A stretch of 57,633 bases of DNA, filler included, from Sphacelaria rigidula (GCA_964200075.2; 5 parts of 5 records of this genome joined end to end with filler, not necessarily neighbours in it); one strand, 5' to 3'; shown: positions 249 to 57,633, numbered from the whole stretch's first letter. Translations and numbers: made by a program. Notes: generated from the sequence alone by a model not told the origin.

Positions 249-557
249 GGGGGGGTGTACTCATGGTCATGCATGCCGTCGCCATAATATGACCATTGAC
301 CTCGCATCCTTACAAAGCCGGAACGGAGCACGCCGGTTTTTCGCTGGACCAGGGTCGTACTCAATCACCAAGTGCGAAGCGCTGTGGTGTGTTGGGCGAG
401 TCGCATGAGGGGTGAGCTCCATCCTGCTAAGAGTGTTCGGTCCTACTGGTTATCTTGCATTCCGATGACAGCCTCAGACGAGTTACCTTATTCTCTGGTA
501 TCGCCACTTCCAGAGACAGCCGCGGCTTATACACTGCTCCATGGGTGTCTCACCATT
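249..557 (+). repeat. Dispersed repeat 'A' (subterminal sequence of a GRG-TIR, Sola2-like element), bounded by G-runs
   Basis: G7-tgtactcatg...gaccattgacctcgcatcc...gtctcaccatt-G7. Same sequence at about 18660, 26135, 29020, 30360, 31373, 34490 and 57541, and inverted at 34642, 46011 and 54453. Confidence 0.9.
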
Positions 558-839
558 GGGGGGGAGCGAGTGCTTTTTAGGAGGTACCTACCCCCTTGGC
601 GCTTGTTTTCAAACCCTTGATTGAGAGAGGGGCAGGGAAAGGGGGGGAAGGGAGGAGGGGAGGGGAGAGGGAAAAGTATCTCACACTTTTGTCCGTGTAA
701 GAGCGGAGAGCAGTGTGATGGAAATGATTTGAAATTGTTGTCGTTTTGTCGGCGTGTTTCCATGCGAACACAAATAAAGCGAGAAGACTTGGTGGTGTCC
801 CAGAAGTAGGGAAGCCGCACGTTGAAAATTGAAAATCCC

Positions 840-1925
840 GAGAGTACAGGAGAGAGTGCAGAGTAGAAGCTTCGAAATTTCACAGTGGACGTTAAAACGT
901 TCATAGCGGAGGCTGATGTGACGTGGCTTGACATGATATTTTTTGTCGCAGTGATTGGCCGCAGGTTGCCCCGCCAAATGCACGATCGACCAGTGTTCAC
1001 TTCTGAAGTGAATAGGCCGGTACAATACTGACTATACCGTACACTGCATACGGCACCGTACGCACCATACACTACGCCTTTTCACTGCATCTGCAGTACT
1101 TCAATTCACCACGGTGCACTACAGTGGCCGTCCTGTAGTGCTTTAGTGCTATAGTGCTGTGCAGCGTGGAGTACAGCGCAGTACAGGGAGCGCAATGCAG
1201 AACTCTACAACAGTGCATCGCGATGCTGTCAAATATTGCACTGTACAGCAATACCGTACAGAGAGTCAGTTGTACAAACAGTAGTACAGGCAGTACGGTA
1301 CGCAGCACTTTCAAACAGCAGACCTAGGCCGCATCGTCGATGGTTTTCCACATGCCACCCATAACGGTGGTGCAAGACGTCATGATCTCTCACGGGATGG
1401 GAATACAGCCAGGTGTAGTTCTGCTTGTGCGCTGTAGACTACGAATCGTTCGCACCGTCTTCTTCCAGCTGAAGCTGGCAAGAATGAGGAACTGCACTCA
1501 ACGGAACCTGTGCCCGTCGAGCATTTGAATTTTCACGCAACACAACCGCACGCGAAGCTGATACCATGGCGGCGTCAGGGAGGCATTTTCATATCGATGC
1601 CAAGCTTTTCTACTTCGTGAATGATCCATTGTGATGAGCACGGCAGTTTTGGTGGATGATGAATGTTCCATTTTGCTTGTCAGGGTGTATTGGCTTTGGG
1701 CTGGACGTGACCATGACGGTGAAGGTGGGCGTGTCTTTTTCCATTCCGCTTTGAACTCTGAAGAGGAACAACGGTTTTCAGAGTAAAGTGGTGCAAACGG
1801 GACTCTCACTCGAAATAAATCGCTCTGAAACAAACTTAATAGCGGAAAGTGCACCGCTACCGGCTATTTTTCCTTCCACTTTGACTAAGATTTGAAAAGC
1901 CGTTTTCCGGAACTCTTTAATATAT
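840..1925. repeat. About 1.1-kb dispersed repeat block, probable interior of the element carrying repeat A
   Basis: Colinear diverged copy at about 18965-20035 on another contig. In both places it follows repeat A. Contains a CAGTA/TACTG-rich tract. Confidence 0.85.
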
Positions 1926-3189
1926 CTATATATGCACAAGAACCCCGGATTCTGACTGTCGAAACGTTGAATATAGCACAAAACTAAGTTTTTGCACACG
2001 AACGCGTTGTTGCATGTCATGCGGGCAGGTAGTGAAACATCTACGTATCTTCGGCTGCGATCTCACCCGGCACATGCCACAAATATGGTTGGAAAAAGTT
2101 CTCGGCCGACAGGCGTAGAACCTGCAGTGCCGATGTCAAATATGAGGGCAATTGCTGGCGGCCACGTCGGCGACGACGACGCAGCAGGAGGGGAGCCCAG
2201 TCCCCGGTCGTATGGAAAACACGGGGCGATTGCAGTGTTCTGTGACTCTGGGGCGCCAGGCACGGTCGTCGATGGTGCGCTCATACAAACCGAGGGGGCG
2301 GTGGGTGGCGGCGACGACCTACGAAGCTCGCAGAGTGAAATAGTAGAGAAGCGATCACCCAGGGAAGGCCCGACGTACACAGTCTCTAATACCCGCGCGT
2401 CGGAGGTGAACACACAGAAGCTATTGGCATCCACTGCGCCGACGATAATCCTCCACGAAGTGGGCACCACAACTTGCGAAGACCGAGAAACTACCGACTG
2501 GATACCCTGTGAGGTGGGGATTTCTACTCCATCTGCATGCGCAAGACGGGCGAGTGTTCAGTGGCTCGCAGGCAGCGGCCGTTCTGTCGTGCTCCGAAGT
2601 GTCTGAGAAGAAGCTCCAGGACAATATCGCCTGTTAAGTGTTGGGCGACAAGACTAAAAAGGGCGCAACGAAGCAAATATTGTAAACGATCCCGTCCGTG
2701 ATGCCGCGTTCAACCCACGAACACGCAGGGTAGAAGTTCGGCATTGAAGTCCAACACGAAGAACAATTTGATGTACACGCAGGAGCTGCTGACAGTATTG
2801 CAAGGGATCGTGGGGGCGCCCGATATTTCCCAGGAGGAGAAGGAGAGGGTGCTTTTCAAGCTAGGGGCGTCTGTCCCGTTCAGTTCATTGAATTCTAAAG
2901 GAAGTGAGAGCCATATTCAACATCCCTCTGTGGGGAGATGATGACGGGGGGGGGGGAGGAACACAGATGGCGCCGCCGCCTCAGCATCAGGCAGTTCACT
3001 TTCTGATCCTGACTATATAGGCAGGAAATCACAGCCGTGGTACGCCGGAGTTTCAAATTGTAGGTAATTTCCACAGCGAGTATTCGGAACATACATGAAC
3101 AAACGAAGCACACCCCCGTGACGCACGTTCACTTTCCGCTGATCCCACTCCGTTGCCCGCTTGATTCCTACCCGCCGTGTTGCCTACTC

Positions 3190-5700
3190 AGGTGTAGGTC
3201 GCTCGAAAAAAAGTCTTGCCGTGCAATGGATAAGATTCGCTTGCCCCGATGCAGAACAGCCGAATCCGTGCTACATGGCCCACAGGCATGCCATCGACCA
3301 TGCCGTGAAGGCGCACAGGGAACCTCCTCAGGCCGTCACAGAGGGTGACTACCCGGCAGTCGAAGCCTGCCACGCGGCGAAGGTGCGCACTGAGTGGACG
3401 AACGAGAAGACAGAGCTGACTGTGCTGGCATAGGACGACCCTGACACCGTGGGAATTATCAAGGCGCACGAGCAGCGAGGACGAACGGAGAAGATAGGAA
3501 AATGCGGCACAAAGTTCAATCCAAGATCCACGAAGCCTCTTCCACGCGCGTCATACTTTCAGAGTCTACTTCGCCAGAACAACGAACTTGTCCGGAATTA
3601 CCCGACCGCAGGTGCATTCAAGCGGATACTACTCGATAACAATGAAGGATCACTGATCGTCACTCACGGGGCCAGCATGCTGCATGTTCTCAGAGGCTTC
3701 ACGCATCGGCTGCGGCAGGAGTAGGAGGGCACGTTGGACGGGAGCGAGGAGGGGGAGTGGCGACGACGGCGGCCACCAGGTGCGAGTCTATGGTGGACAC
3801 GCAGCCCGGCGTGGGCGCGAACAGTGAGGGGAAAGAAGGGCCTGACAACAGACGCCAAGCCGCAGCGCTGAGAAGTGGGGGGGCGTTGGTAGGACATACT
3901 ACCAACGCGAGCGTGGTGGGTAATAGAGTGCGAAGACTCGCCCAGCAGTTTGCGGCGGCGGTATCAGTCGGGCAAAGGGGCGACAGAGCGGCGTCGGTGA
4001 TGGGAGACGCGACGGTAGACGCCGGTCTTGTTGCTTGCGGTCTGGGGGGTGCGACCCCGCAGTGGAACACGGCAGCGATGATGGACGAGCTACCGTGGGG
4101 GGGAGCGGGGGGGAGAAACCGCAGGCGCAACTTCGCGGGCAAGTCTTCTCGGCGGCCGGGTCGCGGTTGCGGCCAGCCAGTGGAATTCACCGGCTGTATC
4201 AAGCGGATGGAGAGGGGCCCGGCGATGCCGCCGGCGGCAGCAAGTGCGGCATACGGATGCTTCGACGACGGAGGCATGGTAGAGGTGGCCCCGCGGACAT
4301 ATCTTGCGGCGGTGACGAGCTAGCGATCAAGTGGGGCGGTGCCGGTGCCAACGACGGGGCCGAACACTAGTCTACACACCCGCGCAGGGGTTACGGAGAT
4401 TACGCGGTCGTATCTTGCCGCGTTGACAAGCTGCGAGAGGGGGGAGGAGGCGGAGGCAGGAGAATCACGCGCCCAAAGTGACGCGCTCCCCGACCCTTCT
4501 ACTCGTGCCTCGAAACGTCACCTGTTGTGGTGGCATGATGGCAGTGGGCCTGATAGGAGTATCCACAGCACACCTGGACCCGGCACAGGTGAGGGAGATA
4601 TGTCCACAGTCCACTTCATCATACACTCCGGAAGGCTGTTCGAGAAATCCCTGAAGAAGTGGCTCGTGACTTCCATCGACACTGATCAGTGGATGATTGC
4701 ACTTCTGGCGATGTCCTCCGGGTGTATCAAGTCGCATGGTTCAGGCGACGTGCTAGTCACTGTCAAACGCATCGTGAATGATGGCCCCCAGTATTTACTG
4801 GTGAACCGGGTGTACAGTGCGATCGAGAATCTGGGGGACGGGAGCGAGAGTGCTTGGCCCCCCGACGGCCAGTACGCTTGGCTGACACCATCAATGAAGG
4901 CGACACTGTTCGTTTCCACCTACCTACTGGCTGGGTGCGATTTTTCAACACATGTGTCCGAAATTCGTTTCCTGGAGATGTGGGATTTCGTTCTAAAGGC
5001 CATTCGCACGCCAAACCTGTTCACGAAAGCGATACTGGCGGACACAGATGGGAGGCTCAGGGTGAAGATGGGAAGCTGCTGGCCACCGTTTTTTTTTTCA
5101 GGTACGAGAACGTTTTCTCACAAGTTGCCACGAACCCGGAAATTCTGTTCACCACGTGCGGACAGGACTTGGCGTCGTACGTGAACAAGATCCGCTTGTG
5201 TATTACCACAGCGCATGTGCACCAACCTTCCCGCTGCTGCCTAGACTTGGGCGCCTGTAAGAAGCACGTCAGTAAGTCCGATGTAGTGTTGGAATACTGG
5301 GGGGGAAGCTCCCTACGCAGAATGTCCCCAGTGAACTTAAACGGACGCAGGGGGCGTACTCATTTGTTGCTTGCCTTGGTCGTTTGACCATTGACCACGC
5401 ATCCCTTTCGAGACGGAGCACGGACGCAGGGGAGGCATAGAACCTGAGAGGAGGACTTAGCACAAGGGTGGTGTAACAGCCTCGATACCAGCGGAGGGGG
5501 AACTGTCACGCGATAACATTGTGGTGTGCTTGTCGAGTCACACACACGTCGACAGACTTTCATGTGCATGCAACCCGGAAAGGGCGGTGACAAAACACAG
5601 ATGCCGGAGTTGCAGGTGTTTGGGCAACTGCACTCTGATCTGCGGTTGCCAGGGTCGCTGCTTCCTATCCCCGCCCCCTTCGCGAGCGGCCGCCGAGAAC
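3190..5700 (+). pseudogene. Decayed AcademX-like transposon ORF: XPG/PIN-like nuclease region plus C-terminal Cys-rich (Tesmin/CXC-like) finger
   Basis: Motifs in the expected order: GRSKKS, HAID, VLA*DDPD..IKAHEQRGR, GEGD (HEEAD-like), SIDTD, LAGCD, H..K.....YW, GW, CACNP..CRSCRC..CTLICGC..RC. Stops at 3431 and 3722, a frameshift near 5065, and an insertion at about 5354-5419. Confidence 0.7.
5350..5432 (+). repeat. Dispersed repeat 'B' inserted with a 13-bp direct repeat
   Basis: gcgtactcatttgttgcttgcc...gagacggagc, flanked by ACGGACGCAGGGG at 5341-5353 and 5420-5432. Confidence 0.9.
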
Positions 5701-5739
5701 CCCGCTGAAGAAACCGGCGCCGGACACAGCGGTGCATGC

Positions 5740-6110
5740 GGCCGATCGCGAAACGGGAGAAGCCGATCAATAGCGAAGCATGCAAGGCGCGGGTCGACTG
5801 CATCGCGTGGAATGGGGGCAGCATCTCGAGCAAGCACCGCACCAGGAATACCTGTTGATGCGACTGATGGTGAGGAGCCTCGCTATCGCGGCGGCGGGAG
5901 TGAGGTAAGGGGGGGAGCGCACTCTGGACTAGATCCGATCAGTGATACCGATGGCGAAGATGGCCGTGCACGCTTGCGATTTTGCAAGGGATAAGGCCGG
6001 TCAACAGCGAAGCATGCGAGGGGCGAGTCGGTTGCATCACGCGGAAGGGGCGCGGCAAGTCGAGCGAGCAACGCGCCAGGGGCACCTATTGATATGACCG
6101 ATGGTAAGGG
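5740..6110 (+). repeat. Diverged direct repeat (two copies about 235 bp apart) downstream of the CXC finger
   Basis: agcgaagcatgc...gatggtgagg (about 5770-5876) versus agcgaagcatgc...gatggtaagg (about 6005-6109). Confidence 0.75.
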
Positions 6111-7179
6111 GCGTTACTGGCACGGAGGCAGGAGGCAGGGGGTAGGGCGGGTGCATCCGGGACAAGAGCCAATCGATGGCTACTTTTGCGACGGCGGATC
6201 AGATAAACCCGTCGGACACAAGTCGAACTCTGCAGTCGGGATCTGGATCGGAGATTCGGATTAAGAATGCAGCGGGTCCGAGAGACAGGACTCGACAACG
6301 GAAGCGGGCGACGACAATGAGGAAGATTTCGCGTCCTGATTTCAGAGTGTGGATAACGTTGGGGTCGTTCCTGCTGTAGATAGATTACGCAAACGTTTCT
6401 GTACAATTCAAGTTTGTTTTTTTCTAGGCTGTAGTCGCGAGCCATGTCTCATGTACATGGCGATGATGGTTCGTGCAAGTGCGGTGCACCGTGGGGTGCA
6501 AACGTGTATGGGGAGTGATCTGGCTACGCCCGTCAGCGAATCGCCCGTGGTGCATGAGGCTACATGGTAATGTCAATCAAGTGAGTGTTTCAACGCAAGG
6601 CGACTAATCTGAACGACACTATGGTATGCCAGTCAACATTTCGACACACTCTGCAGCACTGGCAATGCTCGCACCTCAACGCTATGGCGTAGAAAAGTGC
6701 CGGAAATCATCCGTATCACTTTTGTGTTGGACAGTTGGACGAATAACATCGTGTGGTGTTCTTCGTTATACTCTCGCCGATATCCCTGATACTGCACCAT
6801 CTGCACCGACCCGGAGGGTCGTGTCACCGCTGGTCTGGCGCATCACACATCGGGTCGATTTTCGCAACGTTTCATTGACACCGCTTCCTATGGCGAACAT
6901 AACATGTTGAACGGCTGTTTTTTTCATGTCCTTCTTCCTCGTTTTGGGCGTAGATGATACCTGGGCGGATGTTGCCTCCTCGATATACCTTGCGTTCATC
7001 GTCGGAAAATCTGTCACATCGTATGAACGTGTTCAGGTGCTTGTGTTTTATTTGTTTTGCCGAAGTTGCATGTTCGTCCAAGAACTGTGAACATCCGTCG
7101 AGTTCAGAGTAAAGTGGTAGTCAGGTGTGGAAATCCATAACACTTATCACCTCGTGTCGACTGTTCTTAGACAAAAATG

Positions 7180-9756: not shown

Positions 9757-10790
9757 ATGGTAAAGTGTGGTCTCTACACTGGGTGTAAGCACCCGACGGT
9801 TGGCAGAGGAAGCAGGAATTGCTCGGAATGCGTGGAATGTGAGGCTATATTGCACCATTTATGTGTCGAAGACGCTTTGGGCATCGTGGGTAAGCCGAAT
9901 GTTTGGCTTTGTGGCATAAAGTACTGCCACGCCAAACACCCGGACAGAGGTGCATCCGCTGCTGCTGCTGCTGGGGGCGGTGGGTCGGCCGGCCCAGCAA
10001 CAAATGCTCCATCTTCGGGCACTACGAGCGGGAGCGCGCGATCGCGTTCGAGGGACTCCACCAACTCAGATGCTGCTAGGGCTGCTACTAGCGCTGCCGT
10101 TGGGGGTGGTGGATCGGTCGGTCCAGCAACAAATGCTCCGTCTTCGGGCACAAGGGGCGGGAGCGCACGATCGCGCTCAAGGGACTCCACCATCTCAGCT
10201 GCTGCTAGGGCTGCTACTGGGGGCGGTGGGTCGGCCGGCCCAGCAACAAATGCCCGATCTTCGGGCACTACGGGCGGGAGCGCGCGATCACGCTCGAGGG
10301 ATTCCACCAACTCAGCTGCTGCTAGGGCTGCTACTGGGGGCGGTGGGTCGGCTGGCCCAGCAACAAATGCCCCATCTTCGGGCACTACGGGCGGGAGCGC
10401 GCAATCACGCTCGAGGGACTCCACCAACTCAGCTGCTGCTAGGGCTGCTACTAGCGCTGCCGCTGGGGGCGGTGGATCGGTCGGTCCAGCAACAAATGCT
10501 CCGTCTTCGGGCACTACGGGCGGGAGCGCACGATCCCGCTCAAGGAATTCCATCAACTCAGCTGCTGCTAGGGGTGCTGCTGGAGGCGGTGGGTCGGCCG
10601 GCCCAGCAACAAATGCCCGATCTTCGGGCACTACGGGCGGGAGCGCTCGAGAGGATCAGCATTGTATGCGAGATATAGCAACAAAAGACGACCGCGGCCA
10701 TTGGATCTGCTCATGTGGGCAGGACTTTGGCGATGCGAAACACTGGAGGCAGACCAACATTGATCAGCACAAGGATTCGGAGAGGCATAA
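9757..10790 (+). CDS. Exon 1: PHD-like Cys/His N-terminus, Gly/Ser/Ala tandem repeats, CxC-x15-H-x5-H zinc finger; host gene or transposase N-terminus
   Basis: cccATG start and 344 open codons. Donor AA|gtgagt (phase 2) joins in frame to 10966. Confidence 0.75.
9973..10647 (+). repeat. Coding minisatellite with 129/117-bp units (about 5.6 copies) and a 363-bp higher-order period
   Basis: GGGGS(A/V)GPATNA(P/R)SSGTTGGSARSRSRDSTNSAAARAAT units. Unit 4 begins at 10336 = 9973+363. Confidence 0.95.
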
Positions 10791-15223: not shown

Positions 15224-15325
15224 GGGGTGGGCGGGGGGCAGGGAGGGGGGGGGTGCTCATTTGTTGCTTGCCTTATAATAATCGTTTGATCATTTTCCAC
15301 GAATCCCTTTTGAGACGGGGCACCG
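15224..15325 (+). repeat. G-rich tract followed by a diverged repeat B
   Basis: G-runs, then tgctcatttgttgcttgcctta...gagacggggcac. Confidence 0.8.
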
Positions 15326-15359
15326 TTCCTACTACCCCTAAGAAAAAAATATGTAACAT

Positions 15360-15655
15360 TACTTTGTGCGCTCAACACGCTTCTTCGAGATATGAATTAC
15401 ACAGAAACCTTTTACATGTATATCTTATCCCCGTCCTGTTTCACCGTCTGTGGCCACCGTCCATCTCTTAGTACAACCACCGTTTCCTCGCTATTGTCCA
15501 TTGCATCAAACGATTTCATGCCACCTTCGTTCACTCCCCGCGTTTCCCCCTCTAGCACTTCCGGTTCTTCGTTGTATAGTTCACATTCTGCCACTATCTG
15601 AATTACACTCTCTGTTGCTTCGATAAAGGGGCAATTCTGTGCATCGACTTCCTCC
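15360..15655 (-). mobile_element. Non-LTR retrotransposon (LINE) ORF2 C-terminal remnant
   Basis: DAQNCP...ES...IVAECELYNEE.EVLE...WPQT.KQDGDKI followed by a frameshifted RFLCN. Resembles, from memory, the degenerate CCHC C-terminus of brown-algal LINE ORF2. Confidence 0.7.
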
Positions 15656-16935
15656 AGGGGCGGGTGAGGGCGGGGGGGGGGGGGGGGTACAGGGGTGATT
15701 CCTTGAGATTACTGACTCGTCTTGAGTATGGGTACGGGTTAAAAGTACGGCAGAAAAAACGACCACGACATCCTCAATGATTGATGAATGCGTGAAACGG
15801 TATCCAGACTCACCACCATATGTATGAAAGTGAAGAGAGAACATACCGAAAAAAAGTCAACACCTGGCTCGTGAACCACATGCATCATTCCCCTTATACC
15901 GCCGGCGCCTCATCTTCACTCATGTGCGTTATCTCATTAATGCCGTTGGCCAGTGTCAGACACATTGCGACTGGGAAGTCAGTACCTCTGGTTATGTAAC
16001 TGCTCACGATTAATACATTTGTTTTGGGGACTACAGCATTACAACCGTCAACACCTTCATGTCCGCGTGCTAGTCCGTCCTACAACATAACTGCGCGAAT
16101 AAGTCCATATGACGTATCGCACGGCTTGTTTGTCCAGCAGTACGTGTGAATGTACGCATGTATGCCATTTACGCGGTGGGGAATGTCAGGAAGTATTGCT
16201 CAGACGTGCGTGAACGCCATCCCTTCCCAAAGTAATGTAACGGCATAGTTGAGGTACGTTGGAGAGTGCTTCGCACACACATGCAAAGTTCTTCATGCGT
16301 AGCAGGTATATGGTGAGCCGTTCGACCAAATAGAAACATAGCATAGCCCAAGTGTATTATGTGCAAAAACGGAGGTAGATGGGTTCTTATTATACCGGAA
16401 TCGGTCTTGCGTTGCGTGAACTATCAGCAATGTAGGTTGGTCGTACCCAACTGGTGCCACGTTCTTCAATACGGTGAAACCAGAGACGTCGAGCTCTATC
16501 GACGAAATACGCCGTAGCAATCGCCCAACACAAACATTCACCCAAGAGATGCTCTTCAAATGATAGACCCACTGACCCAATTTCCTCTATAGCAGAACTA
16601 AGGGGGGGGGGGGGGAAATGATCACTCACAAATGGTATATACCTTGAATAAAATAAGATTTATATCATGATAAAAGCTCCGAGTCGCCAGTAACTGTACA
16701 TATGCTTGGCACAGACGAAACGCGAGCAGATTCGCTTCATGTATCCGATCTTTCCCGCTTGCGGCCGTATCAACACCCTCGCCTCGCCTCAAAACCCCAC
16801 ACCCACTTCCGCCCCCCGCCCCTCCCCCTCCTTCAACTGGGTATCGTGGGTGGACAACACCCTGCAGAGGACAAAACAAGAACATTCTCATACAGTGAAA
16901 ACTTTCGAGGAAGCCCAGTCAACCCCATTCAAGTT

Positions 16936-17327: not shown

Positions 17328-18639
17328 CTGGGTTCGATACGAAGTCCGGGGTCGAGCGGAGACGCAGCGGAGAGGTTTGGGGGGGGGGGGGCAAGGGTTA
17401 CTGATATTGCGCGGACCCTGATTGTTTGGTTCACTGCCACCCATGCGGCATCGAGAGCAAGGAGCTCTCGTCTTTGCTGGGGGGGATGTCGTGGGGCGGA
17501 TGAGCACTGCTAATGAAGGAGCTTGGACTTCCGCTTGGGGTGACCAATCTCGTGCGAGCAGGTGTTCCTACCCTTTTCCGTTTGTGTCGGGGGCGTCATG
17601 ACCACTGCTGTCGTGCCGCTTCGGGTAAAAATATGACCTACGGAGAACGGTGAAGTGAACATGGGAATGCACCTGCGTTGGAATGGAGGCACGGAAGAGC
17701 TTTTATCGCTTCAGGACCCCCGTGCAAAAGTAGTCTATGAGGCACGTTTTTGGCCTGATCTTTGTTCGACTGTTGCTGATCACGGTCAGTCGCCGTTTTA
17801 TGCGCTTGCACCATTGGCACTAAAACGGACCGATGGCTTCGGGGAACTCACGTAGCCTTTCAAGTGTGGCTCGTTGCTATAATAGCAAATTTGCACTTGC
17901 TTTGGAGGGCTGTTTGTTTGCCTAGTCCAGGCGTGCGTATGCATGAAGGATGCTCGCTCGTCGATTCCTACACATCTCAGACTAGCACGTTTGGTACATA
18001 ACCTGGGACCTTGAGGTGGTTCAACGACTTACTGTAACATGCTGTACTGTGCATACCGTCTGTGGTAACGGTAGACTCTCTACATGCCTTCAGACCAGAC
18101 ATCCTGCTTCCGTACTACATAACAAACTTTACCCGCGTATCAGATGGCACTGCGGGCATGCTACCGATGCCATCTTTCGCCAGAGAGGATCATGAATTGT
18201 GTAAGACAAGCTTAGCCCCAGCGGGAGCTGCTGTCGTCACCACAGGCTACATGTAAACCGTACCAAAATGAGAATTTCAGATGGAAAAGGAGTGCAAGGC
18301 ATTTCTCCTATCGGCTGTACTTCTCTTTTTCACTGTGGAGTGCAACACAAATACACGAGTTATCAAGTATCTTCTACATCCTATCGAGCAAGACCCAAGA
18401 CAATCATCGATCGTCCTAACTTGAACATCACAAAACAAGAGTCACTCCCAAAGAACCAGACATCAGAACTGTTGAGATGCTTCGTAGAATACGCTTCACA
18501 GACGGGTACCCCAACCCTTGAATATACCTGTTGTAGGTACAAGTTATGGTGTGCACAGGAGTCGATATTTTCGATTTGCGAGCGACTTGACAACAAAAAG
18601 ATCCACGGAGAAAAAGAAGGCGAGCGGGCGCACGTGGCG

Positions 18640-20035
18640 GGGGGGGGGGGGGGGGGGGGAGTACTCAAAGCCGAGACGGGGTACGCCGGGCTTTCGCCGG
18701 ACCGGCCTCGCAATCCATCGCCAACCGCGAAGCGCCGTGATGTGTTCGGCGAGTCGCGTGAAGGGCGAGTTGCACCCTGCCAAGATTGTTCGGCCCGAAG
18801 CGTACTGATTATCTCGCATATGGAAGACATTTCCCAATGAGTTGCTTCATTTTCTTGTATCGCTACTTCCAGAGACAGCTACGGCTTACATACTGCCTCA
18901 CGGGTGTCTCGCCATTTAAACATTACGTAGTAGAGAGTTTCGGAAGATTTTGTTTCTGATCATAGAGTCAGAGTGCAGAGTGGAAGCGTTGAAACTTCAG
19001 AGTGGACGCTAAAACGTTCATAGCGGAAGCTGATGTGACGTGGCTTGATGTGGACTTTTCCCCCCGCAGTGATTGGCCACAGGTTGTGCCGCCAAATAAA
19101 TTTGCGATCGCCCAGCGTGCAGTCCGGTGCAGTCCGAAAATGCACCAGTCAAGACAGCACTCCCTGTACCATATCCTGCGGCACCGTACGTGCCGTTCTC
19201 CACGCTTCATTGCACCTGTAGTACTTTAATCCACCACCACGGTGCACCACAGGGTACTGTAGTGCTGAGGGCTGTGCAGTGTAGAGTACAGCCAGTGCAG
19301 TATAGCGAGTGCAATGCAGCACCCTACAACAGTACATCGCGGTACGGTGAACTACTGCGATGCCGTACAGTCAGTTGTACTGTAATACAGCAGCACAACA
19401 GTACAGAAGTAGGCAGCATTTTTCAACAACAGGCAAGGCTGCATCGTGATGATTTCCCAACATGCCACCCGTAAGTGTGGTGCAAGAAGTCATGACCTCT
19501 GACGAAATGACAATGTAGCCAGGTGTAGTGTTGCCTGTGCGTTAAAGACTATGAATCGTTCACACCGTCTTCTTACAGCTGAGGCTGGCAAGAGTGGGGA
19601 ACTGCACCCAAGGGCAATGTGTACCCGTCGAGCATTTGAATGTTCACGCAACACAACCAAGCGAATGCTGATACCATGGCGGCGTCAGGCAGGTCTTCTG
19701 ATTGCCATGTCAAGGCTTTCTACTTCGTGAACGGCCCATTGTGATGCGTATGGCAGTTTTGATGACTGACGAAAGTCCCACTTTGCTTGTTAGGGTGTGT
19801 TGACATTGAACCGGACGTGACCATGGCGGTGAAGGTGGGCGTCGTCCTTCTTCATTCCGCTATGAGCTCTGGAGAGGAACAACGGTTTTCAGAGTCAAGT
19901 GGGGCAAACGGCGATCTGACTCTGAAAAATCGCTCTGAAACAAACTTCATAGCAGAAAGTGCACCGTCACCGGCTATGTTTCCTTCCACTCTAACTCCAA
20001 GATTTGAAGAAACCTTTTCCGAAACTGTCTGATAT
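18640..20035 (+). mobile_element. Poly-G, internally deleted repeat A and the 1.1-kb block (truncated element copy)
   Basis: Same order as 249-1925. Abuts the copia gag at about 20035. Confidence 0.8.
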
Positions 20036-22995
20036 ATACTTTTTTTAACTACGACCGGACCTGCAAACAGTTTTACGCTACGGTTCGAACCACAGGGCTC
20101 AGCCATTGCGGACGGTAAGAAAGCTTGGGGCGGCTCGACTGCCAAATCTCAGAACCCATCAAAACAAAGACGTCGAATTCTGATGAGACAGTTAGACAAT
20201 TTTACTATGTCGCAGGGTGAGGACCCGGATGTATTCCTCTCAAATTTATATCAAATCAAAGACGAAATAACGAATACGGGTGAAAGCGTCAATGATAAAG
20301 GTTGACAGATATAGCAATAGAAGGGCTGACTGATGACTACAGTCAAATTCAATACGACACTGAGCGAGATTCTGATTTTAGCCTGTCTCAGATAGAATCA
20401 ACCATGAGGAATCTATACGTCAACTGTTTAGCTCGTGATCAATCTGTGCGAAAATATGTAAGTCGAGAGAGTGCTACGCATGCATCATCATCACCCCTAG
20501 ATTCGTCTTCGAGGGCCACCAAATCTCAGAATAAATTGTATAATTGCGGGAAACCTGGTCACCTCATGCGTGACTGCAGCTCTAGGAAGCAGCGTAACGG
20601 CAGATAGGTTAAGTGTTGTGGCCTACACAAAACAAATTAACATGATAACTCAGAGTGAAAAAATCAAATGAACAATGGGAACGCAAGTGGTACCTCTGGA
20701 TACAATAGTAATAATCGCTACGGTAATAACCGAAACAACAATCATAACCGTAATCGTAGTAACAATAATAACCATCGAAACATTCAGAATTATGGACCTG
20801 TCAATCCGGCGAACATAGCTACTACAACTCCCACTTCAACTACGGTACCTATGTACACCAATGTCCAGCAATCAAGTGCGCCTACAGCAGCGACTGTCAT
20901 GGAATCTTCTCCACCAAGTGAAGTTGAGTATACCTTGCTTGCTGGGGATCTAGCAGATTCTCCTGATACGCATGTGGCGACCCCATTTACGATGGTAGTG
21001 GACAGCGGGGCCAGCAACCACTTTCTGGATTCCCACCTACTTTTTAACATTGAAGGGGAGATACTTGGCCTCGTTAAGCATGATTCACCCATGTGCATAT
21101 TAGCAGCAGGAATACACATGTTACAAGGCACAGGGAAAGGCATTATTCAATCGTTGGTTACTGACGTCAATGATATTGAACGCTCTCTTTGTTAGCCCGT
21201 CGCAATAGTTCTAGGTCTAGGAAAACACACATCTCCTCCTTGCGAGGCCCTGAGCAAGGTTGTTTCAACCGTGTTCTCTACGAAGTCACACACTGATGTA
21301 GGTGGTTTTCAAATTCCAACCACAATTAAAAATACTGGGGCATTGCATAATATCAGCTTGAGAACTGTTCAAGCACATAATAACTTTCATAGAATAGCAC
21401 TGGTATCCACCACCATTTCTGGGATAGTAATGGGGTTAGGTCCTGCGTATGCACCTGAAGTTATTGATCTAGAACAGCCCGAAGGCCCTGCAATTAACTC
21501 AACTGTGATAAGAGCAGAAGTCTGGCACACAAGACTAGGTCACCCCTCTGAGCAAGTTATGCTTAGTACAACTGATATTACAGAAGAGTCATCCTACGAT
21601 AGGGGGGGGGGTATCTGGTTGCACGTAAAACCAGTCTCATAAGTGTGTCAGACATCCTTCCACACTTACGTTGCGCTTGTATTTGGTTCCAAACGGTGTC
21701 AGGCAGTATGGATGAGCGTAATTGATCCACAACAAGCTTGTTCGAACAACCGTTGCTGCTTTTAACGACGATCTGACTCGAAATTTCGGGCAAAAAATGG
21801 CCCAAAATACCCCCTCCCCCCTATCGTAGGATCACTCAGAATCAGTCGTAAATTTCGAAGGCACACTTACTTCATGTGACACTTGTATGATCAGTGAATG
21901 TACACATCGAAATCACCCAAAGACAATCAACTCGGACAATATAATCGATCGTCTTCAACCTGTCAGCACTGATATTTTAGGTCCAGTGACACCTATAGCA
22001 ATTGGAGGTTTTCAAGTGAACAGCTAAATTTACTGATTATTTCAGTAGATTGAAGATTTTATATTTCATTCAAAGTAAAGATGAAGCTTTAACCACACTT
22101 CACAAATTCATCCAAGATCTAGCAATTTCCCTAGGACTTCGAGTCCAACGTATACGGATTGATCGTGGGGGAGAGTACATAGCAGTTTTTTTCGACAATA
22201 TTGTAAAATGACGGGGACTTTACAAGAATAAACAGCATCGTACACGCCGCAACAGAATGGGATGTCGGAACGTGGCGGGAAAACTATCATGAAAGTTACC
22301 CGATGCCTATTACATGAAGAAATTTACTCGAGAATTTATGGGAAGAGATGGCTGCTACTGCTGTACTTTTATTAATCTCCTACCGCACAGTAGCATTAAT
22401 GGTGAAATTCCCGATAATCGAATGTTCGTAAAAGATGCCAAACTATCATTTTTGCGCATAATCGGCTCGCGTGCTTTTGTACACGTAGAAGGTCATATTA
22501 ATAAGTTAGAGCAAAAGACATGGAAAGGTGTCCTAGTAGGTTATGACTCTAATAGTCCGTGTTATCGGATATATAATCGACAAACTGGTCGCATTGTAAG
22601 TTCGAGAAATGTTGCCTCCATAGAGTAATCAGCCAGAATTATCTCCATTGATACACATGCTACTTGGGGAACAGAAAACGGGGATGGAAATGAAGACGAT
22701 ATCTTCGAACTTCCAAATGATGAACAGCAAGAAATTTTCAACTTGAACGACGATTCATTCGATGGTATCACTCAATTGGAGCATTCACCCACTGAGCGAA
22801 CAACACCGATGCGACTTCGTTCTGCAGGTGTCCCAGATCATGATATATCTCAACGGACAAATATGCGCCAAGCCAGAGAATTGCGCAAACTCGCCATCGA
22901 CTCTGTTGAATACTATCAACACTCGAGTAGAATTCTCGATAGTGTTACCCAATATATAGGAGTAGTCGGTATCGAAGATATAGTAGACTAATGCC
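20035..22995 (+). mobile_element. Decayed Ty1/copia LTR retrotransposon (gag, zinc knuckle, protease, GAG-pre-integrase, integrase); 5' end missing, 3' end cut by contig end
   Basis: DGKKAW, GEDPDVFL, YNCGKPGHLMRDC, VDSGASNH, WHTRLGH..CDTC, TDILGP, DRGGEY, TPQQNGMSER, GSRAFVH..GVLVGY. Many stops and frameshifts. Confidence 0.95.
21586..21837. mobile_element. 252-bp MITE with GAG...CTC TIRs and 4-bp TSD AGAA (Sola2-like), nested in the copia
   Basis: agaa|GAGTCATCCTACGATAGGGGG...CCCCCTATCGTAGGATCACTC|agaa. Removing it restores the copia frame DITESVVNFEGTLTSCDTC. Confidence 0.92.
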
Positions 22996-41139: not shown

Positions 41140-41365
41140 ACAGGAAGGGGAGGGGTATTCCGCCCTCATTTATCCCACGAAATTCCACGTCAAATCGTCG
41201 TTGAAAGCAGCAAACGTTTGTTCGAACGCGCTTGTTACCAGTAAGGGACGCTCTTTCATACTGCTTGACACCCTTTTCCACCCAAATGAAAGCACAACGT
41301 GATCGTGGTGGATCCTCTGACGCAATTCTCAGCCGCTGTTTTTGTAGATTCCCCTCTCCCTGTCA
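41140..41365. mobile_element. Degenerate copy of the 252-bp MITE (TIRs eroded)
   Basis: cgaaatt...atcgtcgttgaaagcagc...catactgc is shared with 21586-21837 (inverted) and 54250-54410. Confidence 0.75.
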
Positions 41366-41600
41366 CAAGACCTCACCCGATATTTTCAAAATCTACGCAT
41401 TCGTTGGCAGGGCACGCGCTACTGCTGTTCGGCGAAATACGAACAACATGGCTGTTCCCTTCATGCTTCATTAATTTTGCAGAGATTTGTCATGCTGTTC
41501 TTTCGTCCACTTCTGTTGTGCATATGTTCACCATGAGTCATTGCTTAGTGCGTGAAACTCGGCGTTGTTGGGTTTGAAACGATGAGATATTTACTTACTC

Positions 41601-44537: not shown

Positions 44538-44593
<56 letters not shown>

Positions 44594-47991: not shown

Positions 47992-48316
47992 AGTTTACCA
48001 CTTGGGATGGTGAGAAATTTCTCAAAAGCTTATAACTTCGAACAAAACATAACACCAACACTAACCCTAACCCTAACCCCAACGAAGGCACACCGAGAAC
48101 CCTCGGGCGAGGGGGGGGAGAGTGTTGACATATGCAAAGGGTGTGTTGCCAGACCTCAAATCGGCGCCCCAGGCGCCGATTTTGACCGAAATGCGTTCTG
48201 CGCAAGCTAGGAGCACGCTTGGAGCATAGCCCCATTAAAGATCCGTATTTTCTCTGTTCACACTAAAATCAAGTCGAACTATCTGAAAAATTTCTCACCA
48301 TCCCAAGTGGTGAACT
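47992..48316. mobile_element. MITE with 33-bp TIRs and internal telomere-like (TAACCC) repeats
   Basis: agtttaccacttgggatggtgagaaatttctca pairs with tgaaaaatttctcaccatcccaagtggtgaact. Interior resembles about 36060-36175. Confidence 0.85.
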
Positions 48317-51059: not shown

Positions 51060-51960
51060 ACATGTAGATGGATAGCTACGAGCTGAGCCGGTAGTAAATC
51101 CCACATTCTCTCTCTGCACTACAACTTCTCAAGTTTCCCAAATCAGCGCGACTTGAGGATATCGCTGTGAACTGCAGGCTAACCTGGTAACACACGGCAC
51201 CGCCGCTGCTTGATTGGCGCAGTTGTGGCGATGATGTTACTGTACTGCATTGAATACTGGGTGCTTATCTTGCCATTGCGTGACAACTTGTCTGGAGACG
51301 TTTCGTTTCAGAAAATGCGGTGGAGTTACGATAGGCCGTTGCGCCGCACAGGCACACGCACACCCGACATGCCCAGGTAAGAGCACACTGGTCGTGCTGC
51401 AAGATGGCATCAAGCTCGTCACAAGCTCCATAATGGAAGAGAACCTCCGAGGCAATTGTCGTATATCACCGCACAACGGAGACGTACTACTAGAAACTGC
51501 GCTATACCCCCCCCAAAAGCTAGACCGTCACCAAAATATCAAGACCCTGAGCAACCCAGAGGTACGAGAGATAATGCACGACTAGTGTGCACAAAAGAAG
51601 TTTTTGTCGTGTCGGGATTCGAACTCATGACCTGTGTGATTTGAGGCTGTTGTATCAGTTTGACCACCGGGGTCACACAAGAAGTGCGATGCTAAGCCCA
51701 ATTTCACGTGTTTTTAGCTGAAATTTCACAAGGATGTGGTTGACGCGAGTGCCCGTATGTGCCGGCGCGTTGTCACCGTTTTTATCATTTATTGAGGAAG
51801 TTATAGCATTTTCCCTTTTTTTGCTGAAACTTCAACCCGCTTTAACTTCCTGTTTTTGATTTTTCCCGTGACACCCCTCACAGGGTTGCGCGGATTGATG
51901 ACAAAAATGTCGTGTCAAAATTTCAGCGCCCAACTCTTCGAAATGCCAATAGCATCTCCA
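51060..51960. repeat. Second copy of repeat family C
   Basis: Colinear similarity to 7420-8200. Confidence 0.7.
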
Positions 51961-52761
51961 CTCTCAGTTTAAAAATCACTAGTTGCCGGCCCAGCTCGTA
52001 ATATATTCGCAAAGACGGTGGAATTGCGGGTGCGCTTGTAGCTGTCGACTGGACGCAGAATTGTGGGGAACGTCCGACAGACAGAGTATTTGGGGGCCTG
52101 AAAAAAAGACCCTTATACAAGTATAGCAATTGATGCCCGACCTCGATGGCTGTGTCAAATGAACCAAAGGTTTACTGCCCCGACTCCTCAAGTAGTTTCG
52201 TACTCATCAAAAACTCTCAGAGAATTCAAGTGGCGCGGTGGATCGTACAATCGGGTCTACTTGCATTTCAGGCGTGTGATCGAAGAAGATACCCCACGAG
52301 TGTGATTCCCCGTATATACGCTCACGTTTTGGCCATTGTATCAGACGGAGTCTGGAGTCGATCCAGCAACAGCTCCACAGCAGCACTCAAGCACCAAAAA
52401 CGATATATGCGCGATGATGTGACACTTTTGGTCCCAAAGCAATCTTGCCCTTCAGTGTGGTCAACGTGCGACGGCGGTGTACCTGCGGCTGAGATCGCGG
52501 AGCTGTGATCGCCATCACCGGCGACGTACAGTAGAAAAGTACAAGGTTTCTGTGGGAAGAACGCCTGCAGCGTTGTTCCATCGGCTGGATTTTTCGCATT
52601 TAATTGTAGCTCTTTTTTTCTGTTTTTCAGAGCGAGTTACAACAAACGTGGCAATCAGTCGGAATCTGACCATCTTACCAAGAATGGCGCCCAGGAACAC
52701 GTCACAAGGAGAAGTATCCGGTCCCTCCGTTCACCGCCCTGCCCCCCTCGCCCGTCTACAG

Positions 52762-52881
52762 GAGGAGCAGAAATGCTCGTTGTGAATGCGGCAGTAGCCG
52801 CCAAGCAAGCCGGTCACGACGTCGTCATCTACACCTCACACCATGACCCCGACCGCTGTTTCCAAGATACCAAGGAAGACG
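52762..52881 (+). CDS. ALG2: Exon of alpha-1,3/1,6-mannosyltransferase ALG2-like (GT4)
   Basis: ctacag| and |gtgag, phase 1-1. GGAEMLVVNAAVAAKQAGHDVVIYTSHHDPDRCFQDTKEDG matches the ALG2 N-terminal signature. Neighbouring exons not found. Confidence 0.88.
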
Positions 52882-54057
52882 GTGAGACTCGCTTCGAGTA
52901 GAAACATGCCGCACCCCCATGGTCTATCCGGTACGTCAATCGCGAGTTCGGGCAGTTCGGGCGGAAGGTTGATGGTTGAAATCGCGAACTGTACGTTTCG
53001 TTTTAGCAGAATCTAGTTTCCATCATTGGGAGGGTGACGATGGCGGTAGCAAAGGAAAGTCGAGGGGAGTTGATGGATTACGGGGACCCTGATCCGATCC
53101 ACGATGCCAGAGTGTCAGGTACGTACCGAGGGGGATATAGGTGGATCCCTGGAGACTACGACTTCGTCCCGAGAAAGGAGAGAGGTTGGACGTACGACAA
53201 GAACAAGATGGAAAAAATCCTGTACTGTCGTACAAAGCAGAGTGTATCATCGGTACCGTGTACATCACTTTCCCCGGAAAATTCCGCAGGGCTTCATCTT
53301 TTGGTTGTTTGTAGCGTCATACCGAGACATACGGTGCTATGCTGGGGTACGTTGTATATCACCCCCTAAAAATCACCCTTCTTCGATCATTTTTTGGGCC
53401 CGAAGCGATCGTCACCCAGGGGTTGTATACATACCTGTTATACGGTACGCAGAGTACGTATGCAGGAAACGTATTTTAATACGTTTTGTACACGACGGCA
53501 CGTAACCAACCAAGCATAAGTGCGCGTGTGCATAATACACGTCCTGGAAACATGTGTGATGCCGATTCGCACGGTTTAAGTAGCACATTGAAACGCGAGC
53601 GATTCCTCCACTGAGCACCGACGACCAGCATATTGAAGTACTTGTAACCGCACCTGTGCACAAGGTATAAAGTAAGTACCTGTCCAGATTCGAGTGGTCG
53701 TAGTCCACTTCAGCGTCATGTATTTTGTCAAATATACATAATTTTGCGCACGTTTCATCGTATCGACCGCTACACACCAACAGCCAACTTTTGCACAGGC
53801 TAGACATTCGTGCTGAAGCTCCCGCGACTCGAATAGCTGATCGTTCGACCGCCAGGGTTTGTCCATCTGTTGTTGTACCGGCATCATGTCCACTCGGAAG
53901 ATGGCTGATGAGAATTGGACGTCCATCTATGGATGCGCAAAGGATCAAGTCTGTTGGTTCCTAACCTTGAGTGACACGGCAACAAACAGTCAGTGAAAGG
54001 TTCACGGGCTTCGGGGTTACTGTCCAACGTTTGGTGGTAACTTCCAAGGAAAATGCC

Positions 54058-54504
54058 GAGTCATGCTACGATAGGGGGGGGGGGGGGGGGGGACATTATT
54101 TGTTTTTTTTTTTGTGTGGTTGTGGATTAGGCCCCCCCCCCTTTGGGGGGGGGGGGNNNNNNNNNNGGGGGGCGTACTCATTTGTTGCTTGTCTTAGTCG
54201 TTTGACCATTGACCACGCATCCCTTTCGAGACGGAGCATGGGGGGAAGTTTGGGCCGTTTTCTTCCACGAAATTCCACCTCAATCGCCGTTGAAAGCAGC
54301 CAACAGTTGTTCGGACGCGCTTGCTCGCGATAAATAACGCTCATTCATACTGCTTTACCTCGCTTTTACTCGAATACAAGCGCACCTCGAGTGTTTCAGG
54401 TCGTTTGATCCATCTTTGAGCACATTTTTTGGTGAACTCGAACACCCCCCCTTATGACATGCATGATCATGAGTACACCCACCTCCCCTATCGTAGCATG
54501 GCTC
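54058..54504. mobile_element. Composite Sola2-like MITE: TIR, G-run, B, MITE core, inverted A, C-run, TIR
   Basis: tgcc|GAGTCATGCTACGATAGG...CCTATCGTAGCATGGCTC|tacc (4-bp TSD, one mismatch). Small N gap inside. Confidence 0.85.
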
Positions 54505-54544
54505 TACCGGTGGAGAGATGGGTGGCCAGATGGTTGGCCCCTCC

Positions 54545-54758
54545 GTAATACGTGAGAGGACCGTGTACTTGGGGGACCGCATCGTAGTTCGAAACACCTC
54601 AGGATCGACGTTTTTCGAAACCATCGGGCCAGTCCCTGCCGGGACCACGCCCCTGACCCTTACCCCAACACTAACCCTAAACCTAACCATAGGGGTATCC
54701 ATAGGGGTATTTTAACTCCGATGCGGTCCTCTAAGCACGCGGTCCTCTCACGCATTAC
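54545..54758. mobile_element. MITE with about 50-bp TIRs and internal telomere-like repeats
   Basis: gtaatacgtgagaggaccg...gaccgcatcg pairs with cgatgcggtcc...cggtcctctcacgcattac. Core contains ctaaccctaaacctaacc. Confidence 0.85.
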
Positions 54759-57523
54759 ATCCTCGATGGGTCTTCGGATTCCTCCCGAGATGGGAGGAGA
54801 GGGGGGTGATAAAAGCACGACAAATTCGAAGGGAAACCGTACGTAACGTGGATGAATACATCACATCCCGGGTGACCGTGTCTCACATGTTTAACCTCAA
54901 CTTTTGTCGAGAGCAACAAAAGTCCCTGCAGCAAAGCCGTATGTACTCGCAGCGAGGTATCTTGCCAAAGATACGACTTCTTTCACCCTTTCCAGGAAGA
55001 TGGAACCTACCTTTTGTATGCCTCAGTCATTTTCCAGGGAGCGATCGCCTCAACAAAAATGCCCAGCCATTGCTTGCCCCTTTAAACGGTGAGTAAATCG
55101 AAACGATATCGGGTTGGTATTCACTGATGCATCGGTATTTCTCGGGCGAGTCTCTCTCTCTATATGTACAAGACGCAAGGGACGGGGCTGCGCCCCGGTC
55201 CCGTCCGTCTTTTTCGAGGGTCTCGGCATTCTGGTCTTGCCAAGCCCTCGCGAGAACAGATCCTCTCTCGAGATGTTCATGCCCGCCGGAAACATTGCAG
55301 GGCCACCGCGGTCGCGCGTCCGTTCGAACGGTCACGAACTCATGTGTACCCCCGCACAAAGTGAATCCGCGTACCGGGCCCCTAGCAGTTGCATTGGCCC
55401 GAACAGCCATCTCCCGGGGCGGGTGCGGAGGAACATGTACACTAAAGTCAGCAATAAATCTCGTGGGCGCCTCGTTACAAAATACGCTTCACGCTCGTGA
55501 GTTCGAAATATTCCCTATATATATACTATTGCTCCCGCCCCTCCTACACTCCGGAATCTCTCTCGCCGTGTCGCTCTCCCCATCTCCGTCCGAACCGACA
55601 CAGGTGTCTTGTCGGGATTGATTCGAGTCCGGGGGGACTGGTTGCCTCGGCACCTCTTCTTTGGACGATTTACCGCTCTGTGCGCCGTGTGGAGGTGGGA
55701 TACACGCCATTTTTGCTCAGCACCTCGGCTTTTTTTACTGATTGCCTCGCCCGGGTAGATTCGCGACGAATTTTCTCGTCGTCGGAAGATAGACGTGGCA
55801 AGTGTACTTGACCCTCCTCAATAGCTCCAGTTGATTGTATGGTTGGTTGATCAGAGGGTTTTGGGAACTTGTAGTTCGTTCTCGGCGTGGCTTTTCTTCA
55901 CGGAGTGTAATTGTCTCGTGCATTGGACAGTCTCGGAAAACCTGCTACTTTGACTTTTTCAGCGTTATGAGCTTCCCGGTAGGGTTATGCGGAAAACGCC
56001 TGCGTTTTCCCACAACTTTCCAACTTGCGTGAGAAGGAAGGACACTGGGGAATCTCCGCCATGAAAATATTATAACTTTCTTGGAGTGTCTGGTACTCGA
56101 TGACATCACGTGAACTCTTACAACAAAAAGGATCTTGAATCCCTGTGGTCGCAGAGTGGGTTTGGATCTCTCTTGCAGAGAGTGGCAAGGCCACATTGAG
56201 AGATCGAACCACAAGTTGTTCGCTTTTCAAGCCATTTTACAGTGGGGGCGCGCGGGGGGGGGGGCAATTCTAGTAATGTCTAGTCCGAGAACTCCTTTTT
56301 CAGGCCTTGCTTCTTTAGGCTAGCAAAGTGTCGCATAGAGATGAACAACCCGCTCATGCCTATATTTCCTGACGGAGATACACGTCGACAACTAGGTCAT
56401 CGTTTTATCAGTCATAATTGTAAAAACCAATATCTGTAAACAGCTCTTCCCTTTCATGCATTAACCAGAGCTCACTCTTCCAAACTTCGTCGTGTTAGAA
56501 TTAGTACATGACGAACACCTTCTTCTGCGATCTTGAGAGACGGAAGGCAACTCCTCCGGGGACCAACACTTGTACCTCAATCCACCCCCACTTACGGGGG
56601 CGCTGGGCTGGTTCGTTCTTCGTGCGGCAGCGCTGCGGTTGTCGAGGTGATCCAAGCAGTGCGTGAGACAATGAGGCCCACGCGCGGCTGCGCGTCCACC
56701 ACGGTGCCGCAGTTCAGCTTGAAGCGTTTTTTCGTCATGGGTATTTTTTTCCTTCAGGCACTACCACAATTGGCGGTGGACAGAGTGACACGTTTTAGAC
56801 ACCCAGTGCAGTGCTTAATTATCAGTATATATTATAACTCGGAAACGGTACCAGTTGTAATTGGCCATTATCATTATAATGGTAATAATGGTAATGGTTA
56901 TATGAAATACTTGGATAATGATTTCAGACCATTATTTACCGTTACCGGCTTTCAAAGCCATTACCGGTTACGTATGCTACAAGAGCCCTTTCAAATTGGC
57001 CCAAATCTAACGTATTTTTTAGCTGTAGTGAAGCCAAATCGTGTAAAAACGTGGCCTCAGCACGGCGCCTCCAGCGGGACCCTACAGGAGCGCCTCCGGC
57101 GCCCCCCCCCCTGCCGGTGGGGGGCTTTTTGGCTGGCGGCTGCGCCGCTCGATGACCAAACTATTATGTACCATTTAACTGGGTCATGGTTGCGCTACGC
57201 GTGACCATTCAACTGGTTAATGGTTAGAAAAACTATTTCCAAGTTGTAGCATATATACTGTCCGTCCATTTTGTAACAGGATCCCACCGACCGCGGAAGA
57301 CGCTGGATTTTTGACGAGGTGGTTCGTGTGTTGTTTCGTAACTTGAATGATTTTGATCTTGTATTACCGAGAACCCTGATGTACCTGAAGTGTCAATCAG
57401 GGTTAATTTGGATATCGACTACCGAACGTACCTGGTATTTCGGCATACCTGAAACATGAAGTTAACAACATGTACTTGGTAGTTGGAGATACTTGACTTG
57501 TTGACTTTGCCGAAACTACGTGG

Positions 57524-57633
57524 GGGTCATGCTACGATAGGGGGGGTGTAGCCATCATCATGCATGCCAGAGTCATCAGACCATTGACCTCACATCCATA
57601 CAAAGCCGGGACGGAGCACGCCGGATTTCTCGC
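57524..57633 (+). mobile_element. Intact element end: GGGTCATGCTACGATAG TIR, G-run, repeat A
   Basis: The TIR is directly contiguous with A, which links A to the MITE TIR family. Confidence 0.85.

Follow-up and report, generated by a model that had tools for sequence, protein, structure and literature searches.

Short repeats lodged in poly-G tracts of Sphacelaria rigidula are best explained as truncated LINE copies and a non-coding partner

Two related families of short repeats, here called A and B, recur inside poly-G tracts along a stretch of Sphacelaria rigidula DNA (GCA_964200075.2; 57,633 nt, hereafter the window), which consists of five pieces of 11,446-11,448 bp joined by N/TTAATTAATTAA spacers; the near-equal sizes suggest that these pieces are whole contigs of a size-sorted assembly. 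A preliminary description had taken the repeats for subterminal parts of a transposon with terminal inverted repeats (TIRs), spread by the patching of broken G-tracts from a DNA donor. We find that B, read on its opposite strand, corresponds to the final ~70 nt of a long interspersed nuclear element (LINE), and that A and B are very probably 3'-terminal, mostly 5'-truncated copies of non-LTR (non-long-terminal-repeat) retroelements whose sense strand is the C strand and which were inserted by target-primed reverse transcription (TPRT) from nicked G-runs. TPRT is indicated by a fixed 3' end, 5' truncation, variable target-site duplications, and an open reading frame (ORF) with endonuclease and reverse transcriptase (RT) domains. 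A proposed new repair-type mechanism of spreading is thereby removed, and LINE retrotransposition takes its place.

Self-BLAST, directed BLAST and nhmmer profiles, together with one 26-nt piece recognized by eye, yielded 17 pieces distributed over all five contigs, in keeping with the preliminary count of more than 15. Eleven belong to A (256, 18660, 26139, 29027, 30360, 31373, 34492, 34688(-), 46088(-), 54485(-) and 57547, where (-) marks the opposite orientation) and six to B (5355, 15254, 23096, 29110, 30280 and 54173). Counts at the fixed end use 15 pieces, omitting 23096, which starts at a contig edge, and 46088, an internal part of A. Every one of the 15 fixed ends adjoins a G-run, with at least 4 G directly before it in 14/15 and, in the fifteenth, GGG inside GGGGAGGTGGG; as background, at least 4 G precede just 0.36% of oriented window positions. 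These G-runs reach 13-21 nt in places, and many others are merely 5-9 nt. Polarity relative to the G strand is the same in 15/15, as is the base next to the G-run, which makes this a constant 3' end. The far end varies, leaving retained lengths of 28-412 nt, and in 10 of the 12 visible cases a stretch of 4 or more G begins no farther than 9 nt beyond it, the exceptions being 18660 and 26139. On all of these points (the start at a G-run, the uniform polarity, and the variable end often meeting another G-run) the preliminary description was accurate. B is cut at a common point, ~66-70 nt from the 3' end, in four of its six window copies; this point could be a truncation hot spot, the end of a discrete short RNA, or a template-jump unit. 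Separately, the fixed end was compared with a relict dinoflagellate spliced leader, with 0 matches at up to 3 mismatches.

The identity of B is apparent from sequences outside the window. A 21-nt B motif matched three marine-metagenome contigs, and the LINE protein added one more contig (L004). All four outside contigs have the same layout, a non-TIR flank with a G-run, then B, then the LINE continuation, which extends for hundreds of bases beyond B in the three marine-metagenome contigs. In L001, the sole outside contig read for openness, the other strand carries an open frame of 1253 aa (P0001) that runs off the contig. P0001 matches RVT_1 (E 7.7e-33) and, N-terminal to the RT at residues 64-308, the endonuclease families Exo_endo_phos (E 3.1e-11) and Exo_endo_phos_2 (E 9e-7), and it has a C-terminal Cys/His motif. 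Its PDB matches are the L1 ORF2p and R2 reverse transcriptases, about equally, and an ESM Atlas search returned only RT and endonuclease families again. The stop codon lies within B, 5 nt before the element end, with a C-run after it; L004 holds a 95% identical copy of the L001 ORF with the same ending, followed by C13 in sense orientation. B is best explained as the terminus of an autonomous LINE whose one long ORF encodes an apurinic/apyrimidinic (AP)-type endonuclease, an RT and a Cys/His motif. A single ORF of ~1360 aa seems likely from the size of P0002; ORF1 was not searched for.

Within the window, tblastn of the LINE protein gave minus-strand matches only, at five places with E<=0.01; with all 121 proteins as queries, four of these five places were found at E<=1e-3. 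Four B copies encode about the last 18-22 LINE residues. An older B-type LINE 3' fragment of 412 nt (15245..15687, minus strand, flanked by G9 and, at its opposite end, by GGGC+G16) retains about the last 127 residues at 15254-15665, a degenerate C terminus that includes the Cys/His motif, is 47% identical to P0001 and is interrupted by stops. We also aligned Logan k-mer contigs from four runs (four samples, two studies) to contig 3 of the window. In one of these runs, X1, 562 Logan contigs extend beyond the point where many B copies stop, and their next 30 nt match the LINE body of L001 exactly, showing that the LINE body is present in this genome too.

The nearest named relatives of the LINE protein are unnamed RT proteins from the brown alga Ectocarpus sp. 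CCAP 1310/34, 58-71% identical in the RT and the C-terminal part, which, compared as proteins alone, share a '..RVVNG..' terminal peptide. This kinship, taken with the label 'algae metagenome' of the sequencing run, suggests a host resembling brown algae. Many of the related LINE ORFs P0001-P0048 (~40-90% identical) end with a similar peptide, ..GCVVNG..A.A.., and the residues just before this are variable and low in complexity. Judged from these alignments, the ..GCVVNG.. terminal peptide may mark a conserved 3' RNA element that overlaps the stop codon. Neither the B motif nor the LINE protein had any match in public viral contigs. L004 sits in a public metagenome-assembled genome labelled 'uncultured bacterium', where it is the sole LINE match in a 4.6-Mb bin, and it is most likely a mis-binned algal contig; further upstream in L004, at ~420-520, lies an inverted piece resembling a LINE 3' end.

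A and B can be aligned over their final ~75 nt, including the motifs that the preliminary description had quoted as common to both, and they diverge upstream. A is ~330 nt long in two copies and reaches ~300 nt in another. The LINE protein had no match to A copies at E<=1e-3, and no long ORF was found in A. Scans of A found no tRNA and no Rfam family at gathering score, with chance-level matches at E up to 5 (two A copies), and these tRNA and Rfam scans likewise found no pol III-type 5' head (tRNA, 5S or 7SL). An A 21-mer gave 0 matches each in public metagenome, viral and genome contigs. A thus has the features of a short interspersed nuclear element (SINE) in being short and non-coding, with a 3' tail that matches a partner LINE. 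From the alignment we read A as a non-autonomous partner that borrows the LINE terminal motif and is probably moved in trans, SINE-like, by the same or a related enzyme; it may instead be a LINE-derived non-autonomous element. The consensus RNA fold of the shared tail is weak (-7.6 kcal/mol, with compensatory changes in 2/14 pairs).

The TIR element belongs to a family resembling miniature inverted-repeat transposable elements (MITEs), in which the 16-nt TIR leads directly into a G-run at either end. In an alignment of three copies, those at 21586-21837 and ~41147-41371 pass from TIR and G-run straight to a ~200-bp core, and A and B are absent from both. The copy at 54058-54504 has the same core, with B (54173-54240, left) and a 26-nt A (54458-54485, other strand, right) as extra blocks inside its terminal G-runs, each following the polarity of the local G strand. 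Because A and B are missing from two of the three copies and are extra blocks in the G-runs of the third, they are foreign to the element and are not subterminal parts of a TIR transposon, as had been proposed. In the best explanation, the TIR element's own terminal G-runs are merely further insertion targets, and the supposed intact end at 57524..57633 (minus strand), where a TIR (57524-57539) and G7 are followed by an A-type piece that runs off the contig end, is best read as an A insertion into such a G-run. Just 2 of the 15 pieces, those at 54485 and 57547, have TIR sequence ahead of the G block, with 15 of the 16 positions matching; the remaining 13 pieces match at 0-9/16, the range of random windows, and lack the TIR.

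The uninterrupted 252-bp MITE-like copy at 21586..21837 reads TIR, G10, core, C-run, TIR, and is nested in the integrase region of a copia-like element whose gag/integrase stretch lies around 20100-22990. It is flanked by a 4-bp AGAA duplication (21582-21585 / 21838-21841), which bears out for this one copy the 4-bp duplications that the preliminary description had ascribed to the element; a second copy is flanked by TGCC/TACC. The degenerate copy at 41147..41371 has G-rich and C-rich ends around its core. No transposase for the TIR element was seen in the window. At 54074-54172, the left end of the copy with both G-runs invaded reads TIR+G19, a T-rich stretch, C10-TTT-G12, a 10-N gap and G6; the long homopolymers here probably disturbed the assembly, and the sequence given for this interval is not to be trusted.

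Two insertions are flanked by target-site duplications that contain unique sequence as well as a G-run. A 65-nt B piece encoding the last codons of the LINE ORF and its stop (5341..5432, minus strand) lies between 13-bp duplications (5341-5353 / 5420-5432), and a 255-nt A insertion (31358..31642, minus strand) lies between 15-bp duplications (31358-31372 / 31628-31642). Both clean duplications end with a G-run, of 4 G and of 7-8 G, respectively; since the G-run is inside the duplicated target, it predates the insertion. The 255-nt insertion itself consists of A positions 1-174 and a rearranged A-family piece. This second piece (31544-31627) is repeated elsewhere in the genome, joined there to A position ~50 (a Logan joint links 31581 to 29044), and may represent an A subfamily with another terminal part, or a template switch.

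We propose that the endonuclease would nick the G strand at a G-run's 3' edge, so that the freed oligo-G 3' end could pair with a short oligo-C at the 3' end of the RNA and prime reverse transcription, which would stop at variable points. A staggered second nick would then create duplications that hold the G-run and often nothing else. Such an insertion would leave G-runs on both sides, where later copies could stack beside earlier ones in the same orientation. Some runs at junctions are long: 13-21 G in the window, C13 in L004, and at least 25 G in the consensus that follows the common B end in 268 X1 Logan contigs. For this reason we think that an oligo-C tail on the RNA may pair with the nicked G-run, much as the A-tail of LINE-1 does with a T-rich nick. 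Stacked arrays are present at 30269-30409, in the order G-run, B, G-run, A, G-run, and in reverse order at 29008-29162, and tens of Logan contigs per run join the B end to a G-run and the start of A. The stacks fit either repeated insertion into left-behind G-runs or template jumping.

The G-run junctions are unlikely to be products of assembly. Two-colour-chemistry poly-G reads, or short-read misassembly through poly-G, could in principle have produced them: five of the 10 contig ends lie inside A/B copies, an N gap falls within the C10-TTT-G12 stretch at 54132-54166, and G-run sizes from short reads are unreliable, with a 1-nt difference at 29092 in one run. We nevertheless consider such an artefact barely credible. 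In the four runs, with unique-part depths of about 65, 14, 25-35 and 3, Logan contigs at unique depth pass from unique sequence through the G-runs and reach 12-30 nt into the repeats, at 26134, 29008, 30400, 31366 and 34476. One bridges an A piece, G13, a B piece and unique sequence (29054-30286), and others bridge insert, duplication and unique sequence (31555-32826). Run X4, from the other study, differs from the window by single-nucleotide polymorphisms (SNPs; e.g. 9 in 2 kb) and has the same insertions, so the insertions predate the split of those strains. The same junctions in four runs and two studies, including a strain with SNPs of its own, make misassembly unlikely, and the check for it that the preliminary description had proposed thus came out against an artefact. 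Many of the G-runs are, moreover, just 5-9 nt long, far below usual assembly k-mers, and the junction of LINE end and G-run recurs in four unrelated outside contigs.

Other mechanisms could be imagined for true junctions of this kind. The model of the preliminary description, in which broken G-tracts anneal to the poly-C strand of an abundant TIR transposon and are patched by DNA-templated copying with no RT, would fit the short pieces of 28-66 nt that have a G-run at either end, and G-runs are plausible break sites. We give it only a very slight chance, as A and B are not in the TIR-element consensus, B coincides exactly with the 3' end of a LINE ORF, the pieces reach 412 nt of LINE coding sequence, and the 13- and 15-bp duplications of unique flank, which patching does not predict, need staggered nicks. 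What survives of that model is that spread is independent of a transposase and that the 3' end of a G-run very likely primes it; the template would be RNA rather than DNA, close to the RNA-templated route that the same description had named as its alternative. Templated insertion by polymerase theta, which copies short stretches of nearby DNA with junction microhomology and without duplicating the target, was considered as well and was ruled out by the dispersed LINE donor, the pieces of up to 412 nt and the 13-15-bp duplications.

Two further possibilities accept the LINE and dispute how it reaches the G-runs. The C-run might be the element's own homopolymer tail, with no preference for G-runs and with the far-side G-runs as tails of neighbouring or tail-only insertions; fixed-end G-runs of 13-21 nt (13 nt in L004), the runs of at least 25 nt after the B cut point in the consensus of 268 contigs, and the tens of contigs that join this point to a G-run and the A start would all suit this. 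We think it unlikely, because both clean duplicated targets contain a G-run (4 and 7-8 G) that was already there, and because the insertions at both ends of the TIR element sit in pre-existing G-runs, each in the local G-strand polarity. Alternatively, LINE cDNA might be primed independently of the endonuclease at spontaneous breaks in fragile G-tracts that form G-quadruplexes (G4), a view compatible with the G-run association and with the many very short insertions whose duplication is no longer than the run. This, too, is quite improbable: the open LINE frame keeps an Exo_endo_phos domain, and the two duplications of 13-15 bp are typical of staggered enzymatic nicks.

TPRT of LINE ends from nicked G-runs remains our preferred reading, and several observations weigh against it. 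Duplications of unique sequence number only two. Eight further pieces have G-rich sequence alone on both sides, which, being G-runs only, cannot be told from tails or chance G-rich flanks; two pieces, the long A copies at 18660 and 26139, show neither a duplication nor a far-end G-run. The frequent common B end (~66-70 nt) is not explained by simple random truncation. The window itself contains no full-length LINE, and the contigs found outside it could belong to a close relative and not to this organism. No pol III head was recognised in A, whose SINE-like label derives from the shared tail. The RNA intermediate is deduced from DNA alone, and among the joints listed there is no empty site for the contig 3 insertions in the other strain.

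More tentatively, and with somewhat less than an even chance of being right, these elements may form a LINE lineage and partner that follow the logic of LINE-1 (L1) with C:G in place of A:T. An element with an oligo-C tail would home to G-homopolymers, seed and lengthen poly-G, stack copies in one orientation and colonise the G-runs of the unrelated TIR element, and end-to-end template jumping would account for the copies that are cut at ~70 nt and linked by G-runs. In TPRT of LINE-1, the poly(A) tail pairs with the T-run of the TTTT/AA nick. The elements described here resemble LINE-1 in their ORF with AP-endonuclease and RT, fixed 3' end and frequent 5' truncation, variable duplications that start with a homopolymer, a homopolymer at the 3' junction, and a non-coding partner that shares the tail. 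They differ in that their homopolymer reads C on the element strand (G on the primer strand) rather than A or T, in a 3' untranslated region (UTR) of merely 5 nt with the stop codon within the terminal motif, and in an apparently single ORF.

LINEs that target simple repeats are known from the R1 clade (Waldo, Mino and Dong) and the Tx1 group (Kibi and Koshi), with (ACAY)n, (AC)n, (TAA)n, (TC)n and (TTC)n as targets. As in these, the simple-sequence target here is also found at the 3' junction, duplications comprise the target repeat and new copies recreate targets; unlike in these, the target is a mononucleotide G-run. This feature is seen at 15/15 fixed ends and in both clean duplications, small numbers that are also compatible with the C-run being only a tail. 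The eel elements UnaL2 and UnaSINE1 are a LINE/SINE pair with a shared 3' tail and stringent-type recognition. A and B similarly share their last ~75 nt and differ upstream, A being a non-coding ~330 nt; unlike the eel pair, A lacks a tRNA, 5S or 7SL-like head, and the shared hairpin is weakly supported (2/14 pairs).

LINEs of the RTE clade have a single ORF, a very short 3' UTR and no poly(A), which the single long ORF, 5-nt 3' UTR and missing poly(A) of our LINE recall; the likeness is drawn without phylogeny, and the C-terminal Cys/His motif sets our LINE apart. One distant match of the LINE protein is labelled 'Craniofacial development protein 2', a label that is presumably often attached to RTE-type sequences. 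In searches of the open-access literature we found neither a (G)n-specific LINE nor one with an oligo-C tail, and no paper on brown-algal LINE ends. The mechanism is ordinary LINE biology; its unusual points are the G/C homopolymer, the 5-nt 3' UTR and the ..GCVVNG.. end.

The A/B family is clearly very abundant. Summed depth in A/B bins is 10^4-10^5 times that of unique bins, a ratio that is not a copy number, and 157,184 X1 Logan contigs fell on the 11.4-kb stretch, nearly all of them on repeats. At this abundance, the family would be a main source of poly-G tracts and assembly breaks in a large algal genome, and possibly of strand-biased G4-forming sequence. G/C pairing of target and tail would also provide a test of tail-primer complementarity versus endonuclease specificity in determining where LINEs land.

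The other copies vary in length and completeness. On the minus strand, A copies occupy 249..564 (302 nt, element 256-557, with G7 on either side and the C strand as element sense), 18639..18940 (with an internal deletion near the 3' end and G21 before it) and 26134..26465 (the longest, 327 nt, with GGGGG before it and a junction seen in Logan contigs). Also on the minus strand, an A copy at 34476..34541 has GGGGGGGAGGGAGGGG before it, is reached by Logan contigs and runs off the contig end, and a B copy at a contig start (23096..23178) is cut ~66 nt from its 3' end and followed by CGCTAT and G15. Two pieces are on the plus strand, an A copy in opposite orientation at a contig start (34642..34697, C9 after it) and a stretch from the interior of A (model positions 228-307) that lies at the end of a contig (46010..46087). 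Both stacked composites are on the minus strand: 29008..29162, spanned by a Logan contig, comprises a G-rich block, A (65 nt), AAAAA+G13, B (39 nt) and a G-rich block, and 30269..30409 comprises G11, B (66 nt), G9, A (40 nt) and GGGGGAGGGGG, with one G-rich word on both sides. The five contig ends inside A/B repeats are 23096, 34541, 34642, 46087 and 57633, as expected of short-read contigs, which break at high-copy repeats. An extra 10-N gap at 54157-54166 closes the C10-TTT-G12 stretch (54132-54166) described above.

Poly-G itself is unevenly oriented along the window. Runs of at least 7 G have plus-strand G:C counts of 10:0, 8:0 and 13:0 in contigs 1-3 (1-34541) and of 1:1 and 6:4 in contigs 4-5, and A/B pieces track the local G strand (14 vs 3). 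Nesting alone does not explain a one-way G polarity over 11 kb; one idea is an antisense bias of LINEs within genes. The window has a eukaryotic look, with few long ORFs, the copia-like stretch, and no matches in tRNA and Rfam scans; a Pfam scan of 10 of the long ORFs, aimed at gene orientation, found no domain.

Further repeats lie beside these elements. A 1.07-kb non-coding repeat with 77% identity is found at 853-1925 and 18970-20037, each time just past the far end of an A copy, and may represent either a composite element of greater length or a segment that was duplicated. A tandem array of ~120-bp units (82-93% identity) occupies 9958-10650, inside long ORFs of low complexity that are rich in A, G, S and P. 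Elsewhere, at 36881-37250, a stretch of 185 bp is duplicated in tandem with 98.9% identity.

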